IMG/VR virus record: IMGVR_UViG_2660238215_000013
Coordinates: 1 to 6,491 of that record
DNA from: a virus
Lineage: Duplodnaviria; Heunggongvirae; Uroviricota; Caudoviricetes
Reading direction: 5' to 3' (one strand)
DNA length: 6,491 bases
In this document: positions 1-6,491 of the stretch, piece after piece
Layout: each line of letters begins with the position of its first letter
Numbering within the stretch: position 1 is the stretch's first letter
The notes under the pieces: generated by a model
The model's database searches: none
Told to the model about the DNA's origin: nothing
The model's input: only the letters and a program-made list of their open reading frames with translations
Translations under genes and position numbers: made by a program

Positions 1-300
1 CGGAAGGCCTTCACCATATGCCATGCTGTTTGACTGCCCCGCCAGAACCACAACAAAGTAATACTCCGGGTCTCTGGTGGCGCTGATTACTGTGCCTTCT
101 CCATCCGACGGCTTCACCACAACAGGTGTGCTCACATCACCTTCTGCGACAATCGCCTGAATAAGTGCTGCGCCATCATCCGTATACGAAGAAAACGGCC
201 CGCCGTATGGCTGCCATCCTTCACGAATTTTTTGAGCAAGCGCATCCGCAAGGTCTGACGGCGACGCCGCCCTGACCACGTCATAGTGTTTAAATGCCAT
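1..300 (-). CDS. Partial CDS (5' end in window, continues past coordinate 1): N-terminal ~100 aa of a prophage NanS-p-like protein, DUF1737-type N-terminus followed by the start of an SGNH/sialate O-acetylesterase-like domain
   Basis: Reverse complement of 1-300 is an unbroken frame from ATG (300-298) with GGAGG 4 nt upstream (305-309): MAFKHYDVVRAASPSDLADALAQKIREGWQPYGGPFSSYTDDGAALIQAIVAEGDVSTPVVVKPSDGEGTVISATRDPEYYFVVVLAGQSNSMAYGEGLP... The GQSN block is typical of SGNH-type esterases. Position directly downstream of the prophage tRNA trio matches the gene found after stxAB/tRNAs in lambdoid Stx-type phages. Absent from the ORF track because it is truncated by the window edge. Confidence 0.7.
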   Translation of the reverse strand, partial: MAFKHYDVVRAASPSDLADALAQKIREGWQPYGGPFSSYTDDGAALIQAIVAEGDVSTPVVVKPSDGEGTVISATRDPEYYFVVVLAGQSNSMAYGEGLP

Positions 301-400
301 GAATCCTCCCGGCCGGGATAATGTTGTGAGTCAGATAAGGGGCGGGCTGAAGTCCGGAAGTTACAGGACAATGACAGAAGGAAGACTACAGCCCGCAATA

Positions 401-429
401 CGAAAAAGGCCGCGCAGTTGCGCAGCCTT
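401..429 (-). terminator. Putative intrinsic terminator, minus orientation: near-perfect 11-bp GC-rich hairpin (406-429, one mismatch) followed on the minus strand by a U5 tract
   Basis: aaggccgcgcagttgcgcagcctt folds back on itself (10 of 11 pairs), then TTTTT on the minus strand (complement of aaaaa 403-407). Lies about 100 nt upstream of the esterase gene start. Confidence 0.35.
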
Positions 430-487
430 ATAAACCCTGGTTAAAATCCACACGATAAAAATGACAATGCAAGTATCTCATGCTGTT

Positions 488-512
488 GCCCGAACCTACT
501 CGGGCGTTTTTT
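488..512 (+). terminator. Putative intrinsic terminator, plus orientation: gcccga-acctac-tcgggc hairpin followed by T6
   Basis: 6-bp perfect stem 488-493/500-505, 6-nt loop, tttttt at 507-512. It is oriented against all flanking genes, so it would stop antisense transcription entering the tRNA/late region. Confidence 0.4.
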
Positions 513-830
513 GCATGTAAAAATGCTCCTGCGATGAGGAGCCTGGATATATGCCTAATCTCTGTATACAGCATGATGCCGGGTGCCTCCCGGTGAATTC
601 TGCAATGACCAGACAGAATCCGCAACTTGCCTATACAATACGCAACCAAACATCTGTCATTATGCCCCGCCGCCCAGGGGGATTCATCATGCAGGATTTT
701 TTTAACAAACGCTCAGCATGTCAGGCAACAGTCAACTACCTGAATTGTGAGGCATTTAACATTTCACTGTCCGGTATCTTTCCTGTAATAAAAAGCCCGC
801 AAAAGAGAGTCAGGGCAGATAAGTGTGGTG

Positions 831-907
831 TGGCGCGTTGTACTGGATTCGAACCAGTGACCGATTGCTTAGAAGGCAATTGCTCTGTCCGGCTGAGCTA
901 ACAACGC
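831..907 (-). tRNA. argO: tRNA-Arg, anticodon TCT (reads AGA); phage-borne rare-codon tRNA
   Basis: Minus-strand 77 nt: GCGTTGT-TA-GCTC-AGCCGGACA-GAGC-A-ATTGC-CTTCTAA-GCAAT-CGGTC-ACTGG-TTCGAAT-CCAGT-ACAACGC-G-CCA. Full cloverleaf with 7-bp acceptor stem, TTCGAAT T-loop and encoded CCA. Symbol follows the ileZ-argN-argO order of lambdoid/Stx phages, recalled not searched. Confidence 0.85.
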
Positions 908-920
908 ATGATGCTGATAA

Positions 921-997
921 TGGACCGCCATCGGGGACTTGAACCCCGCACAGCCAGCTTCGAAGGCTGGCGCTCTGTCCCGATGAGCTAATGGCGG
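921..997 (-). tRNA. argN: tRNA-Arg, anticodon TCG as read from the anticodon loop CTTCGAA
   Basis: Minus-strand 77 nt: CCGCCAT-TA-GCTC-ATCGGGACA-GAGC-G-CCAGC-CTTCGAA-GCTGG-CTGTG-CGGGG-TTCAAGT-CCCCG-ATGGCGG-T-CCA. Acceptor, anticodon and T stems are all complementary. Middle member of the trio; anticodon is as read here, symbol by position. Confidence 0.8.
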
Positions 998-1006
998 TAT
1001 GTGATA

Positions 1007-1082
1007 TGGTGGCCCTTGCTGGATTTGAACCAGCGACCTGGCGATTATGAGTCGCTCGCTCTCACCACTGAGCTAAAGGGCC
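1007..1082 (-). tRNA. ileZ: tRNA-Ile2 type (anticodon CAT, presumably lysidine-modified to read AUA); an elongator tRNA-Met cannot be fully excluded from sequence alone
   Basis: Minus-strand 76 nt: GGCCCTTTAGCTCAGTGGTGAGAGCGAGCGACTCATAATCGCCAGGTCGCTGGTTCAAATCCAGCAAGGGCCACCA. Nearly identical in layout to E. coli tRNA-Ile2 (ileX) as I recall it; anticodon loop CTCATAA. Confidence 0.85.
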
Positions 1083-1119
1083 GGGAGCAGAATAATAACG
1101 GTCCGTAATTAATTCCGCA

Positions 1120-1145
1120 ATAAAAAACCCGCTCAATGGCGGGTT
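1120..1145 (-). terminator. tR'-like intrinsic terminator of the late leader transcript (minus orientation)
   Basis: Minus strand AACCCGC-CATTGA-GCGGGTT followed by TTTTTTATT: 7-bp stem 1126-1132/1139-1145, U-tract from 1120-1125. Sits between the Q-like gene and the tRNAs, as tR' does in lambdoid phages. Confidence 0.6.
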
Positions 1146-1203
1146 CTGGTAAAGTTCATGCGTTTGGTTCGCCTCGCGATACAGCTTTGCGAAGCTTACC
1201 GGA

Positions 1204-1232
1204 ATTGAAGCAGTTTGTGGCTCATTTTGCAA
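1204..1232 (-). promoter_or_regulatory. Candidate late promoter PR' with presumed qut region: -35 TTGCAA (1227-1232), 17-bp spacer, -10 TTCAAT (1204-1209)
   Basis: Hexamers read directly on the minus strand, starting 8 nt after the Q-like stop codon (1240-1242). The predicted short transcript would end at the 1120-1145 terminator. Hexamer choice is by eye. Confidence 0.4.
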
Positions 1233-1239
1233 TGATTTT

Positions 1240-1776
1240 TTAAGCATAATCGAACGCTTCTCTCATAGGTGAATACAAAATGAACTCAGCAATACTCAAC
1301 CACTGATCAACACGGCGTCGGCATGTAATCAACGCCCACTCTGGGTACTGTTCGTTTAGTAGCTCGGCCATCCTTCTCTTACTCATCCCTCGTCCCACAT
1401 AACGCTGACTCAGGACATTAAGCAGCCCGGGATGATCCGCCAGTACTTCGCCAATAACCCTGTCGATTATTAATGCCTCTGCATCAGTACAATGCGCCAG
1501 CCAGCTCTTTTGCTTACCGTTAATCATATCCCGCAAAAAAGCCTCAAGTTCAGACTTGTTCAGACCTGCTTTTTTCATCCTCCGGAGCGCCTCGTTAATT
1601 GCCGTTTTTGTCAGCTTTTTAGAGGCCAACAACTGGTTGAACATATTCCCCGTCTTACCGCCGCCAATATACGACCAGCGCCCCCACATGCGCAGTTTTC
1701 CCTGAATCCAGACACTTTCCAGCGTGGTGAGACGAAGGTGCTCTCCGCTTTTTCCTGTGTTCGTTGGGTAAATCAT
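1240..1776 (-). CDS. Putative late-gene antiterminator Q (178 aa). Function assigned mainly by synteny (last gene before PR'/tR'/tRNAs, after ybcO-like gene), not by a verified family match
   Basis: ORF-track frame 1240..1896 trimmed to the ATG at 1776, which overlaps the upstream stop as ATGA (ATG 1776-1774, TGA 1775-1773). Product MIYPTNTGKSGEHLRLTTLESVWIQGKLRMWGRW...SPMREAFDYA. The 40 codons upstream of this ATG overlap the ybcO-like gene in another frame. Confidence 0.6.
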   Translation of the reverse strand: MIYPTNTGKSGEHLRLTTLESVWIQGKLRMWGRWSYIGGGKTGNMFNQLLASKKLTKTAINEALRRMKKAGLNKSELEAFLRDMINGKQKSWLAHCTDAEALIIDRVIGEVLADHPGLLNVLSQRYVGRGMSKRRMAELLNEQYPEWALITCRRRVDQWLSIAEFILYSPMREAFDYA

Positions 1777-2063
1777 AAATAACCGTCCTTTCTCCAGATC
1801 TCTTGTGTGCGAAAAACACCTTCTGCATGCATCAGGCGCAATTCTTCTTTGGTGTAATCGCTGGTTTTTACTCTCCCGTCGATTAAATCGTGGCATGAGT
1901 TACAGGCAATCGCCGCCTGCATATCGTGTGGTTTTGTCGCTGTTCCGCACGTCCCCGCCAGCCTGTAATGCGCCAGCACAGAAGTTTCGGGATTGTGATT
2001 GCAGTAGCCAGGAATTCTGACTGTGCACATCTGCCCCCGCGCCGCTTTACGTAAATCCACCAT
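1773..2063 (-). CDS. ybcO: YbcO-like DUF1364 protein (96 aa), a Cys/His-rich nin-region protein
   Basis: MVDLRKAARGQMCTVRIPGYCNHNPETSVLAHYRLAGTCGTATKPHDMQAAIACNSCHDLIDGR... matches the remembered DLP12 YbcO pattern (MADLRKAARG..C.VRIPG.CN.NPETSVLAH.RL.G.CGT.TKP.D..A.IAC..CHD.ID.R). Start ATG 2063-2061 overlaps the upstream stop as TAATG. Confidence 0.85.
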   Translation of the reverse strand: MVDLRKAARGQMCTVRIPGYCNHNPETSVLAHYRLAGTCGTATKPHDMQAAIACNSCHDLIDGRVKTSDYTKEELRLMHAEGVFRTQEIWRKDGYL

Positions 2064-2662
2064 TACGCAAACTCCAGTAACTGCGCGGCCACATTTTCGA
2101 CTTCCTCCGGAGAGGAAAATTTACGGAACAGGATCCAGTTCCACAGCACATTCAGTACAGATTTATAAACCTGCTGAAACTCGGTTTCGTCCATGTTCGC
2201 AAATGCGATAGATTTTGCCCTGCGCCCACGACTACCGTCCGGATAAAAATGTTCGGTGTAAAATCCGGCCTGAATGGTTACCCATTCGCGAAAAGCGTCA
2301 AAGGACTTGAGTAAGGCCGTATCCCGGGTTCTGCAAGTCGTAACGGTGTTAAGGTATTGCTCTGCGGCATCACTCAGGGCTGGCGTATGTTCCCGACCTA
2401 CTGATTCGCACAGGAAATCAACGAAACCGGACACCAGTTCTCGTTCGCGAGGCGTGATCGCCCCACCGTTCGGAGTCCAGTAATCGAATCCCAGTTGCAG
2501 GAGTTTGAAAAAACGCTTGTGGAACGCGTAGTTACGCACTCGCTTAAAGTCCGCGTGTATCCACTCACCTATTTTGATTTGATGCAAAAAATCGCAACTC
2601 TCCGGCGTCGCCGGGAGAAGTAATCCGGAAGAGGTTTGTTTGACCAGTTGTATATGCGCCAT
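2063..2662 (-). CDS. Conserved lambdoid nin-region protein, probably DUF1367 family (199 aa)
   Basis: ORF-track frame 2063..2674 begins at a TTG; the first ATG (2662-2660) has GGAG 6 nt upstream. Product MAHIQLVKQTSSGLLLPATPESCDFLHQIKIGEWIHADFKRVRNYAFHKRFFKLLQLGFDYWTP... Family assignment is from memory of prophage nin-region proteins and is unverified. Confidence 0.65.
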   Translation of the reverse strand: MAHIQLVKQTSSGLLLPATPESCDFLHQIKIGEWIHADFKRVRNYAFHKRFFKLLQLGFDYWTPNGGAITPRERELVSGFVDFLCESVGREHTPALSDAAEQYLNTVTTCRTRDTALLKSFDAFREWVTIQAGFYTEHFYPDGSRGRRAKSIAFANMDETEFQQVYKSVLNVLWNWILFRKFSSPEEVENVAAQLLEFA

Positions 2663-2721
2663 TGCTGTCTCCAATGGCGCTGTAGGTTGCCAGTTGTTCA
2701 GGCTGGCTTACGAATTATAAC

Positions 2722-2895
2722 TCATTCCCGAATCACCTTGAAACCGAGCCTTTCAAGATATTCAATGAATGCCTCGATAGATAAAATTACATGATTATCA
2801 GGGATTAACGTTGCGTAGATAACTTCCCCATTCTCAACGCGCACAGCATAGAGGCCATTTTCACTAAAAATTTCACGCAATTCTTCGATTTTCAT
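2722..2895 (-). CDS. Small acidic hypothetical protein (57 aa), not in the ORF track
   Basis: Hand translation: MKIEELREIFSENGLYAVRVENGEVIYATLIPDNHVILSIEAFIEYLERLGFKVIRE, stop TGA 2724-2722. SD-like GGAAGGA 6 nt upstream of the ATG. Lies in the AT-rich patch between the A-B-C terminator and the DUF1367-like gene. Confidence 0.5.
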   Translation of the reverse strand: MKIEELREIFSENGLYAVRVENGEVIYATLIPDNHVILSIEAFIEYLERLGFKVIRE

Positions 2896-2976
2896 CAACA
2901 GAATCCTTCCAGATAAATAGCACTCCCCTGCTCGGGGTCCATCCCTCTTCTCCCTGCGCGCTACTTAAGTGCATCG

Positions 2977-3004
2977 ATTCTAGTCAGGCATACCCGCTTA
3001 TCAA
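2977..3004 (-). promoter_or_regulatory. Candidate sigma70 promoter: -35 TTGATA (2999-3004), 16-bp spacer, -10 TAGAAT (2977-2982)
   Basis: Hexamers read on the minus strand about 80 nt upstream of the 57-aa ORF and just downstream of the A-B-C terminator. Could give lysogen expression of the 57-aa ORF independent of phage antitermination. Confidence 0.35.
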
Positions 3005-3057
3005 CAAACGAAGGTCGGTTTAGTGGAGGAATCGGCTAAAACTTGATCTGTTAAAGT

Positions 3058-3083
3058 AAAAAACCCGCCGAAGCGGGTTTTTT
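3058..3083 (-). terminator. Strong bidirectional intrinsic terminator closing the A-B-C operon
   Basis: aaaaaacccgccgaagcgggtttttt: 6-bp GC stem (3063-3068/3073-3078), loop UUCG on the minus-strand RNA, flanked by A6 and T6. Starts 6 nt after the stop of gene C (3089-3091). Confidence 0.75.
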
Positions 3084-3088
3084 GTATA

Positions 3089-3481
3089 TTACATACTCTC
3101 AATGTCATTTTTTAGTGAGTGCTTGTGTAACTCCATGGAGTAATCAACATCACGAAGAGTTTTTTCAATCTGCTTGCTTCTCAGGGTGGCAAGCGCATTA
3201 TCAATTGACACTTTTTCTTCATCTGAAGCATCAGCTCTCATTTTCGTAAGAGTCTTACGAGCCCTTGCCACATCCACCTTGAAACGTACGTCCTCTATGC
3301 TAGGTACGTTAACAAACGTAAGAAGTAGCAAAAAGAAGTGAGCAATAACAACAGCAACCCCAGGGAGAAATGCGTTGATATCAGCAGGTAACCCAATATA
3401 TGCGCTAGCCTTGACCAATAGGTAATTTGCCACCGGTGTGCACCACGCTTGGCTTGCAACATACTTAGATTGTTGAATCAT
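3089..3481 (-). CDS. Gene C of the candidate cassette: 130-aa predicted membrane protein, one clear TM segment (FLPGVAVVIAHFFLLLLTFVNV) and a charged, probably helical C-terminal tail. No family recognised
   Basis: ORF track 3089..3481. ATG 3481-3479 overlaps the stop of gene B as ATGA, with GAGG 6 nt upstream. Low GC like A and B. Confidence 0.7.
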   Translation of the reverse strand: MIQQSKYVASQAWCTPVANYLLVKASAYIGLPADINAFLPGVAVVIAHFFLLLLTFVNVPSIEDVRFKVDVARARKTLTKMRADASDEEKVSIDNALATLRSKQIEKTLRDVDYSMELHKHSLKNDIESM

Positions 3482-3717
3482 GAAGTGCCTCGCGTTAAAT
3501 CACGCTGAACCTCACTCAACGTGGACGCGAGCTCACGTGCATCCTTTGCATCCAACTGAACTTCGCAATAATGCCTAACTCCACATCGATCTATATAAGT
3601 AAATTTGAGTGTCTTACTTGGTTTAAGCCAAACCAAAAAATGATATACAGCAAAACGAGCCAACATAAAGGCGGCAACAAAAACCGTAATCATCAACATG
3701 ACACTTAAATAAGGCAT
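3478..3717 (-). CDS. Gene B of the candidate cassette: 79-aa small membrane protein, N-terminal TM helix (residues ~3-30) then a ~50-aa soluble tail with a Cys pair (DRCGVRHYC). No family recognised
   Basis: ORF track 3478..3717. Start is 8 nt after the stop of gene A (TAG 3728-3726) with AGGT 6 nt upstream. Stop overlaps the start of C. Confidence 0.7.
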   Translation of the reverse strand: MPYLSVMLMITVFVAAFMLARFAVYHFLVWLKPSKTLKFTYIDRCGVRHYCEVQLDAKDARELASTLSEVQRDLTRGTS

Positions 3718-3725
3718 ATTATTAC

Positions 3726-4595
3726 CTATACGATTCGACGTTCAGCTGCGGCGCGATGCCGTACAACCTGCGTGATAATGTATGCTGGATTCCCCAATAC
3801 ACCATTAGTTTCTTTGACTCTTTTTGTCACATTCACTACAAAAAGATCATCTTTACTGAATGACGCTTCGTTTAAATTTACTCGCTCAAGAAAACCAGCA
3901 TCCGCCATCTTAACCTTTACATCCTCGCCGTCTGGCAATACCATCCTCCAATCTGTATCGGAAGTAAAGCTCAGCTTAGAAAACTTGACGTTTAAGGTCA
4001 ATGAGTCTTCATGTGTATGTTGTACAACCGTATTATTCACTTTTTTAAAAGAAACAGATTGCTCTTGCGAAATAGAGACAATCTCCTCCCCACTTGAGTT
4101 TTTTACTCTAAACGACGAGTTTTTTTCAGTTTGCAGAGGAGTGTGTACCAATTTACTCATTTCATTGCGGATCGTAGAGTTTGTAACGAGCTTTTGTACG
4201 TCATTTGAACACTCAAATCGCTCATTATCAACAACAAAAGTCGCTCGGTTATTGGCTTCATCTATAACAACCTCATGTGGCTTTCGCCCTCGCAACCATT
4301 CTACAACCCCAACCAAACTCCCAGCACTTGCGCCGGTGGCAACAGAAAGCCCCAAGAGTTGCAAAGTAGATAAACTACCCAAAACAGAGACAAGAACAGT
4401 AAAAGATCCTTCCTGAATTGCCTTAATACTAACCCTAGTTGTTGCAGTCTCACCGTGGATAATTTTCTCTGCATTATCAATCAAATTACTTAATGAAGAC
4501 AGAGCATCACCAAGCATTTTAGCATCGATCTCATTATTCGCATATGCATCCCCAGCATATGCAATCTCAAGCTCTGTTACCTGTTGGTCGGTCAT
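3726..4595 (-). CDS. Gene A of the candidate cassette: ~289-aa protein with soluble N-terminal ~60 aa, a ~35-residue hydrophobic segment (FTVLVSVLGSLSTLQLLGLSVATGASAGSLVGVV; one long TM or a TM hairpin), and a ~190-aa C-terminal domain. No family recognised
   Basis: ORF track gives 3726..4613. The ATG at 4595-4593 has GGAG 9 nt upstream, whereas the ATG at 4613 has only A/T upstream, so 4595 is preferred (4613 remains possible). 870-nt frame in low-GC DNA, coupled to B and C downstream. Confidence 0.75.
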   Translation of the reverse strand: MTDQQVTELEIAYAGDAYANNEIDAKMLGDALSSLSNLIDNAEKIIHGETATTRVSIKAIQEGSFTVLVSVLGSLSTLQLLGLSVATGASAGSLVGVVEWLRGRKPHEVVIDEANNRATFVVDNERFECSNDVQKLVTNSTIRNEMSKLVHTPLQTEKNSSFRVKNSSGEEIVSISQEQSVSFKKVNNTVVQHTHEDSLTLNVKFSKLSFTSDTDWRMVLPDGEDVKVKMADAGFLERVNLNEASFSKDDLFVVNVTKRVKETNGVLGNPAYIITQVVRHRAAAERRIV

Positions 4596-4714
4596 GAAGT
4601 TCAACTCCACCATAAAAAATATGCAAAATAATTAACAGTATTTTCACTTTATGGCGGGTGCGTTGAGGATGCCTGACACATCAGAGGTGGCGGGGGTTTA
4701 CCCCGCCTGGTCTC

Positions 4715-4870
4715 TTACTCCTCAGGTTCGTAAGCTGTGAAGACAGCGACCTCCGTCTGGCCGGTTCGGATTCGTACCTCGCAGAGGTCTTTCCTCGTTA
4801 CCAGTGCCGTCACTATGACGGTTAAACAGATGACGATCAGGGCGATTAACATCGCCTTTTGCTGCTTCAT
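4715..4870 (-). CDS. hokD: Hok-family type I toxin (51 aa), HokD/RelF-like
   Basis: MKQQKAMLIALIVICLTVIVTALVTRKDLCEVRIRTGQTEVAVFTAYEPEE: single TM plus the conserved Hok C-terminal motif. Matches my recollection of K-12 Qin HokD. AAGGAG 9 nt upstream of the ATG at 4870. The ORF-track entry 4715..4927 is the same frame extended 19 codons upstream. Confidence 0.85.
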   Translation of the reverse strand: MKQQKAMLIALIVICLTVIVTALVTRKDLCEVRIRTGQTEVAVFTAYEPEE

Positions 4871-4991
4871 AGCCTGCTTCTCCTTGCCTTTCGGCGCGTA
4901 AGAGGCTAACCTACATGTGCAAGTCATAGATATGGCCTCAGATTAATGTTAAGCGTCTTGCCGGACGCGTAATGTTAACTGGGGCTTTTCT

Positions 4992-5027
4992 CTATCTGCC
5001 GTTGGTGTTCATGCCCGAGGCAGATAG
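4992..5027. repeat. 9-bp inverted repeat (ctatctgcc ... ggcagatag) with 18-nt spacer in the hokD upstream leader region
   Basis: 4992-5000 is the exact reverse complement of 5019-5027. Could be a structured RNA element of a hok/sok-type leader. Confidence 0.6.
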
Positions 5028-5085
5028 CCTCAAGCACCCGCAGCAATTCTACTTAACTCTCGCTTTACCGCAAACCGTTTTTACC

Positions 5086-5107
5086 CGATATGGGAATTCC
5101 CATATCG
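5086..5107. repeat. Perfect 22-bp palindrome CGATATGGGAATTCCCATATCG centred on GAATTC
   Basis: Reverse complement equals itself. Lies 9 nt downstream of the 34-aa peptide stop and ~215 nt upstream of the hokD start. Candidate dimeric-regulator operator or a 9-bp-stem RNA hairpin in the hok leader. Confidence 0.9.
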
Positions 5108-5115
5108 TAATGAAT

Positions 5116-5220
5116 TCAGTTCCCTAGTCGATCCATCAAAAACACAACCAGGCAGTAAACGCCCACAACAGCAATAACAGCCAGCGCACCTTCCATTGCC
5201 AGTGAAATATCATCCGACAT
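5116..5220 (-). CDS. Small hydrophobic peptide ORF (34 aa), predicted single-TM peptide; not in the ORF track
   Basis: Hand translation: MSDDISLAMEGALAVIAVVGVYCLVVFLMDRLGN, stop TGA 5118-5116. AGGAGGG immediately upstream of the ATG (5220-5218). Confidence 0.45.
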   Translation of the reverse strand: MSDDISLAMEGALAVIAVVGVYCLVVFLMDRLGN

Positions 5221-5255
5221 ATTCCCTCCTTTGGTGTTAATCCCGGCGAACGTTT

Positions 5256-5339
5256 TTACCCCCACCGACAAATAACATATACTAAAAAAGCGATAGCCAT
5301 AGCAACGCCTGTAATTGCAAATGCTTCAGGCCAGTTCAT
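5256..5339 (-). CDS. Small hydrophobic peptide ORF (27 aa), predicted single-TM peptide; not in the ORF track
   Basis: Hand translation: MNWPEAFAITGVAMAIAFLVYVICRWG, stop TAA 5258-5256. ATG 5339-5337 overlaps the stop of the DUF551 gene as ATGA, with AGGAGG 7 nt upstream. Confidence 0.45.
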   Translation of the reverse strand: MNWPEAFAITGVAMAIAFLVYVICRWG

Positions 5340-5920
5340 TGGCGCACCTCCTGCGGCGGTTCTGGTAGCGGCATCCAGTCGGTTACATTGCGGCTCTGTG
5401 TTTCGAAAAATTCATCACCATCACGGACTACATCAAAAAACTCACCGTCTCGATATTGCGCATAAAGAACGAATGCGCCATCACATAAAATAATTACGTG
5501 CTGACAGTCATCCGGCATTCGCTCACTACAGCTTATCCAACCATCCAGAGTTACCGGATAGTTGGTTGACGTTTCCGAGATTTCCCGAAAATTATTGGTT
5601 GACGAACCCTTATTTTCCCGAAAGTTTCCAGCCTGAAGCATGGCGGCGCTGTCTGGCGGGGCAGCATATAGCGGCACGTATATTTCCGGTTCCTTATCAG
5701 CACCGGGTTGCTCTTCCAGTGAGAATGTCTTTCCGGTAAATCGATTCATATAAAGCACGGGCTCTGCTTCCAGCGAAGCCTGAGCAACAAGGGCCAGTGC
5801 TAAATCCAACTCAATTGCCTCGAGAGAATTTTTGAATGCTGTCTGTTTTACTGCAAATTTCATCGCCTTTACATTTTCACTAACATGACTGATTAACTGC
5901 TCTTTTGTAAAAGTGGTCAT
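5336..5920 (-). CDS. Prophage protein with C-terminal DUF551-like domain (194 aa)
   Basis: ORF-track frame 5336..5980 starts at a GTG; the internal ATG at 5920-5918 has AAGGAG 6 nt upstream. C-terminus ...DGWISCSERMPDDCQHVIILCDGAFVLYAQYRDGEFFDV...VTDWMPLPEPP fits the DUF551 pattern as I remember it. Confidence 0.7.
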   Translation of the reverse strand: MTTFTKEQLISHVSENVKAMKFAVKQTAFKNSLEAIELDLALALVAQASLEAEPVLYMNRFTGKTFSLEEQPGADKEPEIYVPLYAAPPDSAAMLQAGNFRENKGSSTNNFREISETSTNYPVTLDGWISCSERMPDDCQHVIILCDGAFVLYAQYRDGEFFDVVRDGDEFFETQSRNVTDWMPLPEPPQEVRQ

Positions 5921-5976
5921 CTCATTCTCCTTTGATGCGAATGCCAGCGACAATTGAAGCCTGATAGCTAATTCAC

Positions 5977-6372
5977 TCACAGTACCGCCTCCTGAAAATT
6001 GCCCTGATAGAACGCCAGTACACGCAGCATAACTTCACTCTTCCGGCACTCGCCACAGATTATGTTCTGTTGTCTGTCGTAGCGGCGTATTTCTCCGTCT
6101 GGTAACTTTCGAATCAATGTCTGGTCGGTTGTTTTCTCCGCTGCCTTACGCCATACGCGATACACCTGTTCTGATGTAAAAACACCGTATTTACCGGGCA
6201 TGTATAAATCGCCACAAGCCAGTACATCCACAAGGCAACGTCTGACTGAATGCCAGCCTGCTCCCGTCGCTCTCTCCAGTTGTGATATCGTCATGCGTTC
6301 ATTTTTGCGTACCAGCCCGATAATTCGGGCCTTCAGTTCTTCACGCTGTTCGTGTGTAAAAGGTTTCGCCAT
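5977..6372 (-). CDS. Hypothetical prophage early-region protein (131 aa) with a probable helix-turn-helix segment (RMTISQLERATGAGWHSVRRCLVDV)
   Basis: ORF-track frame 5977..6387 trimmed to the ATG at 6372-6370, which has GGAGG 5 nt upstream. The stop overlaps the GTG of the next frame (GTGA). Confidence 0.65.
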   Translation of the reverse strand: MAKPFTHEQREELKARIIGLVRKNERMTISQLERATGAGWHSVRRCLVDVLACGDLYMPGKYGVFTSEQVYRVWRKAAEKTTDQTLIRKLPDGEIRRYDRQQNIICGECRKSEVMLRVLAFYQGNFQEAVL

Positions 6373-6387
6373 AAGCGCCTCCGGCAA

Positions 6388-6491
6388 TCACTTTTCCGAC
6401 ACAATACGACCGGATGAATCGACAATCTGCCGAACAATATCCCGGTGCTTGTTCAGCTCCCGCAGCGCGGCGCAGACTCGCTCCCACTTCT
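6388..6491 (-). CDS. Partial CDS, C-terminal 34 codons of a gene that begins beyond the window end
   Basis: Open minus-strand frame from the window edge to TGA 6390-6388: ...KWERVCAALRELNKHRDIVRQIVDSSGRIVSEK. The stop lies within the SD region of the downstream HTH gene (operon-like spacing). Too short to assign a function. Confidence 0.4.
   Translation of the reverse strand, partial: KWERVCAALRELNKHRDIVRQIVDSSGRIVSEK

Follow-up and report, generated by a model that had tools for sequence, protein, structure and literature searches.

The DNA considered here is a stretch of 6,491 nucleotides, called the window below, that makes up positions 1 to 6,491 of the IMG/VR virus record IMGVR_UViG_2660238215_000013 (Caudoviricetes). 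The elements in question are two small open reading frames (ORFs), ORF1 and ORF2, which lie in tandem upstream of a hok toxin gene. The whole window is a lambdoid prophage of Shiga-toxin-type Escherichia coli, and the part that was searched, 4650-5450, shows 100% identity to several cattle and O157 genomes. A preliminary description of the region had listed two ORFs of 27 and 34 codons preceded by AGGAGG and AGGAGGG, respectively, and direct reading finds both of them as described, on the minus strand. We consider it fairly likely that both are genuine genes for single-pass inner-membrane microproteins, which belong to two unrelated families and differ in their genomic behaviour. The genes and features of the locus, all on the minus strand, follow one another in the order DUF977, DUF551, ORF1, ORF2, palindrome, hok promoter region and hok/mok/sok:

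6387-5977, minus strand: DUF977 gene.
5336-5980, minus strand: DUF551-domain gene (Pfam PF04448, E=7e-20; RefSeq WP_000206794.1 in the identical locus L001).
5347-5352, minus strand: Shine-Dalgarno sequence of ORF1, AGGAGG, inside the DUF551 coding sequence, with a 7-nucleotide spacer to the ATG (direct reading).
5256-5339, minus strand: ORF1, 27 amino acids, MNWPEAFAITGVAMAIAFLVYVICRWG; its ATG overlaps the DUF551 TGA as ATGA.
5243-5261, minus strand: direct-repeat copy 1, GGGTAAAAACGTTCGCCGG, which includes the ORF1 stop (direct reading).
5224-5230, minus strand: Shine-Dalgarno sequence of ORF2, AGGAGGG (direct reading; invariant in a 5-sequence alignment).
5116-5220, minus strand: ORF2 (subtype 2a), 34 amino acids, MSDDISLAMEGALAVIAVVGVYCLVVFLMDRLGN; identical to RefSeq WP_001278450.1 and contained in XECs145.
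5086-5107, minus strand: perfect 22-bp palindrome CGATATGGGAATTCCCATATCG, just past the ORF2 stop, with a 9-bp RNA hairpin.
5068-5086, minus strand: direct-repeat copy 2, GGGTAAAAACGGTTTGCGG, which contains the putative hok -35 hexamer TTTGCG at 5074-5069 (direct reading).
About 5074-5046, minus strand: hok promoter region.
5046-5051, minus strand: putative hok -10 hexamer TAGAAT; the motif TTAAGTAGAAT is kept in all sampled hok loci.
4715-5039, minus strand: hok/mok/sok type I toxin-antitoxin locus (Rfam RF01794, 108 bits).
5039-4865, minus strand: hok mRNA leader (Rfam RF01794).
4927-4715, minus strand: mok.
4870-4715, minus strand: hokD (Pfam HOK_GEF, E=1.2e-23; RefSeq WP_000813254.1).

The longest ORF of the DUF551 gene begins at GTG 5980, while the equivalent of the RefSeq start is 5920. 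Its final codons (..PQEVRQ*) contain the Shine-Dalgarno sequence of ORF1, and the ORF1 start lies across its stop as ATGA, as had been stated. The window has four ORFs of 20 codons or more whose start codon is accompanied by GGAGG, compared with 1.03 +/- 1.08 after shuffling; they are DUF977, DUF551, ORF1 and ORF2, which follow one another on one strand. Each small peptide has one strongly hydrophobic stretch, the best 17-residue Kyte-Doolittle value being 2.48 for ORF1 and 2.95 for ORF2. The AlphaFold model of ORF2 consists of one helix spanning residues 3-33, with a predicted local distance difference test score of 90.6. The single hydrophobic helix predicted earlier for each peptide is borne out by these data.

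Homologues of ORF1 at about 75% nucleotide identity retain both the frame and the 27-codon length. Examples are found in L007 (MSWPEAFTTVGIAMAVALVVYTICRWG), in L008 (MTWPDAFAIVGVAMSIALIVFAICRWG) and in phage 933W (MTWPEAFANVGTVMAVVLVVYSICRWR), where the ORF sits between L0139 and hokW. The family consensus is MxWPEAF..G.AMA.AL.VY.ICRWG, and the terminal motifs WPEAF and ICRWG are conserved. A tblastn search places the family in 92 phage records, including Stx1 and Stx2 (Shiga toxin) phages, BP-4795, YYZ-2008 and Salmonella phage SJ46, which we take to be P1-like. Scanning IMG/VR with a DNA pattern that fixes codons 1-7 only yielded 130 copies (68 distinct DNAs, 49 peptides). From codon 8 on these stay open and reach the same end point, at 23-29 codons, with two exceptions, a read-through of 40 codons and a copy truncated by its contig end. 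The negative control, 596 Gb (gigabases) of unrelated genomes, gave about 80 chance matches to the pattern, with random lengths and a non-hydrophobic continuation. In the genome-contig scan, whose motif was strict at the DNA level so that copies in other genera could escape it, genuine copies came from Escherichia and Shigella only, together with two very small contigs that bear the labels Xanthomonas and Acinetobacter and are taken to be contaminants.

The substitutions within the family are those of a coding sequence. In codons 8-28 of 55 distinct 84-nucleotide sequences, taken together, the third position is 2-3 times as variable as positions 1 and 2. The pooled ratio of nonsynonymous to synonymous polymorphism (pN/pS) is 0.38 in frame versus 0.88 and 1.50 in the shifted frames. 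Stops occur in both other forward frames in 55 of the 55 sequences, and a 2-codon in-frame deletion is tolerated.

ORF1 is always ATGA-coupled to the gene that precedes it, whichever gene that is. At least five unrelated upstream C-termini are joined in this way, including ..PEPPQEVxQ, ..RNGLISVEDILR, ..NIEQEVNR and ..QGENQ, and AGGAGG is matched in at least 5 of 6 bases in 124 of the 130 loci. In 18 loci the frame is closed by a stop 2-6 codons ahead of the ATG, which indicates that ORF1 is a stand-alone ORF. These stops also rule out a frameshift fusion of DUF551 to a transmembrane tail, for which no slippery site was seen. The gene downstream is hok in about 70 of the 130 loci; elsewhere a P1-like gene starts 2 nucleotides past the ORF1 stop, or DUF4222, with xis and int behind it, starts 4 nucleotides past it. 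Because this neighbour varies, ORF1 is better viewed as a translationally coupled operon gene than as a hok accessory. A variant is seen in L010 (1513-1587; plasmid NZ_CP037905.1), where the start codon is ATA rather than ATG and no stop interrupts the frame between it and an ATG further upstream. Read from there, the product is a 31-residue peptide, METGGEVISWPEAF..., with a differing C-terminus (..IFIFWG), and L010 may represent alternative start use.

Both ORFs had been called unannotated. This holds for ORF1, of which GenBank has one entry only (ETJ68712.1); it is without annotation in the RefSeq genomes inspected, in 933W, in the Stx1 converting phage AP005153 or in Shigella phage POCJ13. 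Gene callers such as Prodigal apply a minimum gene length of 90 nucleotides, and ORF1, at 84, is below it. It does not hold for ORF2, which in every matching E. coli genome inspected is annotated in RefSeq, at the same position, as the hypothetical protein WP_001278450.1. The WP_001278450.1 cluster is found on about a thousand contigs.

ORF2 has, moreover, been detected by ribosome profiling. Hücker et al. 2017 (PLoS One, PMC5597208) described a translated intergenic ORF, XECs145, in E. coli O157:H7 Sakai, and the final 34 residues of the XECs145 peptide are identical to ORF2. In lysogeny broth (LB) XECs145 had 79.1 reads per kilobase per million mapped reads (RPKM) in the RNA and an RPKM of 346.1 in ribosome profiling (RIBOseq), giving a ribosome coverage value (RCV) of 4.35 at a coverage of 0.99 (PMC5597208, S2 Table). 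The corresponding figures were 121.3, 150.1, 1.14 and 0.84 in brain heart infusion (BHI), and 73.3, 1.1, 0.01 and 0.37 under BHI stress (PMC5597208). The same authors predicted an inner-membrane protein with one transmembrane helix; neither the linkage to hok nor subtype 2b (see below) is mentioned in their paper (PMC5597208). They called the start at an ATA 60 nucleotides upstream, so that the frame passes through the 3' end of ORF1 (PMC5597208). We favour the 34-residue form because of its conserved AGGAGGG-ATG start and its homology with subtype 2b. A search with the 51-residue, upstream-extended ORF2 returned near-identical E. coli protein entries only. The proposal that ribosome occupancy be checked is thus answered for ORF2 by published data. 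These show that ORF2 is translated in growing enterohaemorrhagic E. coli. ORF1, which is presumably translated too, has its strong Shine-Dalgarno sequence, the ATGA coupling and its conservation to suggest it.

ORF2 exists in two subtypes. Compared by phmmer with 1.84 billion representatives, ORF2 had 7 matches, all of subtype 2a, the form present in the window. Subtype 2b, of 29 residues, reads (GTG)MLVLKCALAIAAVMAIYCLVIVLMDHLSD and, like ORF1, is missing from the protein databases because it is shorter than 30 residues. The two subtypes are 48-55% identical in the same frame and share the conserved motif ALA..YCL..LMD. The start of subtype 2b is always GTG, 5-6 nucleotides past AGGAGG or GGGAGG, and the subtype also has an invariant CATATT that is often found 17 nucleotides downstream of TTGAAG/T; judging from their arrangement, these two hexamers look like a promoter of its own. 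L009 has it in a window-like context, and mEp460-like phages have it in their nin region. A pattern scan recovered 124 real copies of ORF2, about half of them per subtype, and the family is confined to E. coli. In the codons that the pattern does not fix (23 distinct cores), pN/pS is 0.36 in frame versus 0.68 and 1.24 in the shifted frames. Both ORFs are therefore under constraint at the protein level. The conservation of the frames across related prophages, suggested earlier as a check, is indeed observed: both are kept in diverged homologues, with substitutions biased to third positions.

The two genes had been presented as a tandem whose peptides follow a similar pattern, A.I..VA....VY..V, which implied that they are related. 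This pattern has a literal match in neither peptide, and hhalign assigns a probability of 1.9% to the alignment of the two families. On this comparison ORF1 and ORF2 are two unrelated families and not a paralogous tandem pair. Searches of Pfam, NCBIfam, PHROGs and PADLOC with ORF1, ORF2a and ORF2b gave sub-threshold noise only. The HOK_GEF profile matched none of the three at E<=1 (HokD of the same window: 1.2e-23), so the idea that ORF2 is a degenerate Hok helix has no profile support. A full-text literature search for the peptide strings of the ORFs found nothing, nor was there a match in the EDL933 supplements of Neuhaus 2016.

It had been suggested that the peptides might be additional toxins of type I. 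According to this explanation ORF2, and possibly ORF1, would be a membrane-damaging peptide controlled by an undetected antisense RNA, that is, a second toxin module beside hok/sok. Both peptides are indeed small, hydrophobic and predicted to lie in the membrane (by hydropathy, and for ORF2 by the helix model), as type I toxins are, and their size, hydrophobicity and polar tail recall the toxins of the Fst, Ldr and ZorO type. ORF2 also adjoins a bona fide type I system, subtype 2b apparently has its own promoter with the invariant CATATT as -10, and a sigma-70-like site, TTGCCA-16-CATATT, lies antisense over the ORF2 start (5196-5223, plus strand). However, this is one of 2 such sites found where 1.2 are expected by chance, its -35 is lost in A8V variants, and subtype 2b has no counterpart of it. 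The other site, TTTACC-17-TATACT, runs antisense to ORF1 (5255-5283, plus strand) and belongs to the same chance-level count. Rfam finds no RNA over 5116-5339, the Hok/Gef profile does not pick up ORF2, and ORF1 is embedded in operons with neighbours 2-4 nucleotides away. The messengers of type I toxins, moreover, are silent in normal growth, whereas ORF2 is strongly occupied by ribosomes in the exponential phase (RIBOseq RPKM 346 and RCV 4.35 in LB). For four reasons, then, these peptides are unlikely to act as classical type I toxins: ORF2 is heavily translated during growth; the region lacks an Rfam RNA; the sole antisense promoter-like site over ORF2 is no more than chance would supply, is weaker in natural variants and has no equivalent in 2b; and ORF1 is internal to operons.

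The relation of ORF2 to hok is much closer than that of ORF1. The position of the hok promoter was deduced from the Rfam model of the hok RNA, whose 5' boundary is at 5039, and TAGAAT and TTTGCG are its putative -10 and -35. In L007 and 933W the ORF1 stop directly abuts this promoter (..AAAAACGGTTTGCGG..) with nothing between. The window carries at this point a cassette of about 155 nucleotides, made up of a Shine-Dalgarno sequence, ORF2a and the palindrome. It is flanked by two copies of GGGTAAAAACG(G)TT(C/T)GC(C/G)GG, at 5261-5243 and 5086-5068, which form a 19-bp direct repeat; the sequence that makes up the hok -35 region recurs in copy 1 in degenerate form. Among the 111 ORF2 copies with enough flank, 104 have the hok promoter motif TTAAGTAGAAT at a fixed spacing, which is 25 nucleotides from the stop for subtype 2b and 57-59 nucleotides for subtype 2a. 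The adjacency to hok that had been noted for both ORFs is thus a property of ORF2, which is tightly linked to it. ORF1 is found as often before DUF4222/xis/int or a P1-like gene.

The palindrome CGATATGGGAATTCCCATATCG is present once in 63 loci, and the region around it (5040-5130) folds with -25.2 kcal/mol (z=-3.45). Two functions considered for it were rejected. As an intrinsic terminator it would lack a U-tract, and the terminator scan made no call; as an activator site it is at odds with a distance to the hok promoter that differs by 18 nucleotides between contexts. The palindrome goes along with ORF2a, but in L041 and L107 it stands upstream of hok, at a different promoter distance, in the absence of ORF2a. 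It may mark an RNA 3' end, act as an insulator or be a binding site.

What precedes hok was also surveyed by a scan that used the hok promoter and leader alone (77 usable of 80 listed plus 62 newly fetched loci). Upstream of hok there was an intact subtype 2b in about 16-20, ORF1 with ORF2a and the palindrome in 11, and ORF1 alone in about 10-14. An unrelated 59-residue two-helix protein (MKNALQFLFVAFWLF...CIEYWR) was found in about 23, a truncated remnant of subtype 2b (..MDHLSD*) in 10 and a truncated remnant of subtype 2a with the palindrome in 3. Immediately upstream, hok loci of this type nearly always carry a gene for a small membrane protein, either intact or as a remnant. The 59-residue protein, MKNALQFLFVAFWLFVSCMPIIFTARYMEKVDVLILIFGYINALFLGVFMAVMCIEYWR, is predicted to be a two-helix membrane protein; it stands before the same hok promoter in L317 (at about 4200-4400), L318, L324, L327, L333 and L349 and has no Pfam or PHROG family. 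Truncated 3' remnants, of ORF2b (..ATGGATCACCTTTCTGATTGA) or of ORF2a with the palindrome, stand upstream of an intact hok in L319, L322, L325, L326, L328 and L329 (about 50 nucleotides before the hok -10) and in L332, L337 and L341. Since such remnants are fused to other sequence, recombination breakpoints fall inside ORF2.

This arrangement invites the explanation that ORF2 is functionally coupled to Hok, either as a membrane co-toxin or antidote or in cis, by transcription that runs into the hok promoter and tunes it. The fixed distance in 104 of 111 copies, in two genome contexts, is in its favour, as are the subtype 2b stop about 8 nucleotides from the hok -35 with no terminator between and the small membrane-protein gene or remnant found upstream in most of the 77 hok loci, an unbiased sample. 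On the other hand, many intact hok loci, including that of 933W, have a truncated ORF2 or none, and a few subtype 2b copies are without hok. The hokW-sokW system of Sp5 works as a toxin-antitoxin system by itself (PMC8621323); the upstream ORFs are not mentioned in that paper. The fixed spacing, for its part, may reflect the co-inheritance of one DNA block. In sum, functional coupling seems to us slightly less probable even than the type I toxin role. In the broader sense of a small membrane regulator or Hok modulator, a role for the tightly hok-linked ORF2 is plausible from its position.

A further explanation holds that the peptides themselves have no function. Only the act of translation would matter, by carrying ribosomes up to the hok promoter and so counteracting Rho polarity, or else the ORFs would be decaying or neutral remnants. 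One may cite for it the ATGA-coupled junction that ORF1 always ends, the narrow distribution (Escherichia and Shigella only for ORF1, E. coli only for ORF2), the existence of truncated ORF2 copies and the commonness of the ORF1 allele A17D. Yet selection acts on the amino acids, with pN/pS values of 0.36-0.38 in frame versus 0.7-1.5 in the shifted frames, the terminal motifs are conserved, and the length is kept across roughly 25% nucleotide divergence. We regard this explanation as improbable, to about the same degree as the coupling of ORF2 to Hok.

Several observations nevertheless weigh against the view that both ORFs encode functional single-pass membrane proteins. The A17D allele, common in O157:H7, puts an aspartate in the middle of the ORF1 helix and is a poor fit to a simple membrane anchor. 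The charges that flank the helix predict opposite orientations for subtypes 2a and 2b. The sequences are closely related, and the pooled pN/pS values consequently rest on few independent events, especially for ORF2 with its 23 cores. The Sakai RIBOseq reads may be multi-mapped across prophage copies, and for ORF1 RIBOseq coverage is possible only over the approximately 25 nucleotides that it shares with XECs145. Finally, ORF2 is dispensable for hok, as truncated 2a and 2b remnants are common upstream of intact hok loci.

Two unrelated microprotein genes remain the reading that we prefer, and a model of how they work may be outlined. ORF1 would be translated by coupling to any preceding gene that contributes AGGAGG in its last codons and a stop overlapped by the ATG. 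Together with this Shine-Dalgarno sequence and the last few upstream codons it would travel as a unit among the mosaic junctions of lambdoid, Stx and P1-like phages of Escherichia and Shigella, and this unit is seen with or without hok. The ORF2 family, on the other hand, travels with the prophage hok locus. Both peptides are expected to insert in the inner membrane and may act there by helix-helix contacts, the partner being either a larger membrane protein or the peptide itself. They would then be accessory factors of the "moron" type and not type I toxins.

The surroundings of the locus agree with the prophage type. The neighbouring genes include replication genes of the ydaT/U/V type, DUF1367/1364/1133, three tRNAs and the small RNA (sRNA) AgvB. 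In the window the anti-sRNA AgvB lies at 453-512 on the plus strand (Rfam RF02702, 59.9 bits), and the sRNA STnc100 at 513-721 on the minus strand (RF02076, 170 bits). Clustered at 831-1082, also on the minus strand, are the tRNAs Met(cat), Arg(tcg) and Arg(tct). This combination is typical for the region upstream of the late or stx genes in Stx-type prophages. Directly downstream of hokD (3726-4613, minus strand) is a gene for a 295-residue protein that matches both the PADLOC phage-defence candidate PDC-S42 (E=1.2e-46) and the NCBIfam entry "LAPAL motif-containing putative phage structural protein" (E=1e-61). In L001, which is identical to the window across the ORF1-ORF2-hok stretch, the interval from hok to DUF1367 is occupied instead by genes for a toxin, Doc (death-on-curing), and for a small hypothetical protein. 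From this comparison the interval looks like a site of variable cargo beside hok.

ORF2 was already known as an annotated and translated hypothetical protein. New here are the ORF1 family, subtype 2b, the linkage of ORF2 to hok and the recurrence of a small membrane-protein gene as the neighbour of hok. ORF1 is missing from essentially all annotations of the Shiga-toxin phages 933W, Sp5/VT2-Sakai, VT1-Sakai and BP-4795 and of many E. coli prophages. Including it and correcting where ORF2/XECs145 starts gives better gene maps for phages of medical importance. In the sampled phage contigs hok is almost always preceded by a small membrane-protein gene, and ORF2 in particular moves with it. That the small single-helix peptides upstream of the hok promoter (ORF2a or 2b, and elsewhere ORF1 or the 59-residue two-helix protein) act with or against Hok is a conjecture to which we give little weight. 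If it were true, the prophage hok locus would be more than a two-part system, and the upstream peptide would be a protein-level modulator, an immunity factor or a co-toxin that tunes Hok-assisted phage release. If the peptides have no influence on Hok or on phage release, ORF1 and ORF2 are two more accessory microproteins.

How do the two peptides compare with known systems? XECs145 and WP_001278450.1 are the same gene as ORF2, the WP_ record being at the same position in identical prophages; XECs145 differs by its ATA start, 60 nucleotides earlier than the ORF2 ATG. With Hok/Gef proteins and hok/mok/sok loci (PF01848, RF01794; hokW-sokW of Sp5, PMC8621323) the ORFs share a small hydrophobic N-terminal helix, the prophage location and adjacency, and ORF2 co-travels with hok. 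Unlike these, they have no HOK_GEF match, no periplasmic Cys-containing domain, no leader frame of the mok type, no fold-back RNA elements and no antisense RNA in the Rfam search, and ORF2 is translated during growth.

Ldr, Fst, ZorO, Ibs and TisB resemble the two peptides in length and in their hydrophobic-helix architecture, and the short acidic tail of subtype 2b is also seen in Fst. In contrast with these toxins, no cognate antisense RNA was found for the ORFs and there is no long structured 5' untranslated region; growing cells translate ORF2, and ORF1 lies within an operon.

AcrZ, MgtS, MgrB, KdpF and CydX are small single-pass inner-membrane regulators of E. coli. ORF1 and ORF2 have no sequence relationship to them and are phage-borne, unlike these genes of the chromosomal core. 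The two groups have in common a length of at most 50 residues, one transmembrane helix, short polar ends, a strong Shine-Dalgarno sequence and a frequent lack of annotation. Indeed, ORF1 and ORF2 are conserved ORFs of at most 50 codons under protein-level constraint, as expected of small inner-membrane proteins, and it is by analogy with this class that their mode of action is proposed.

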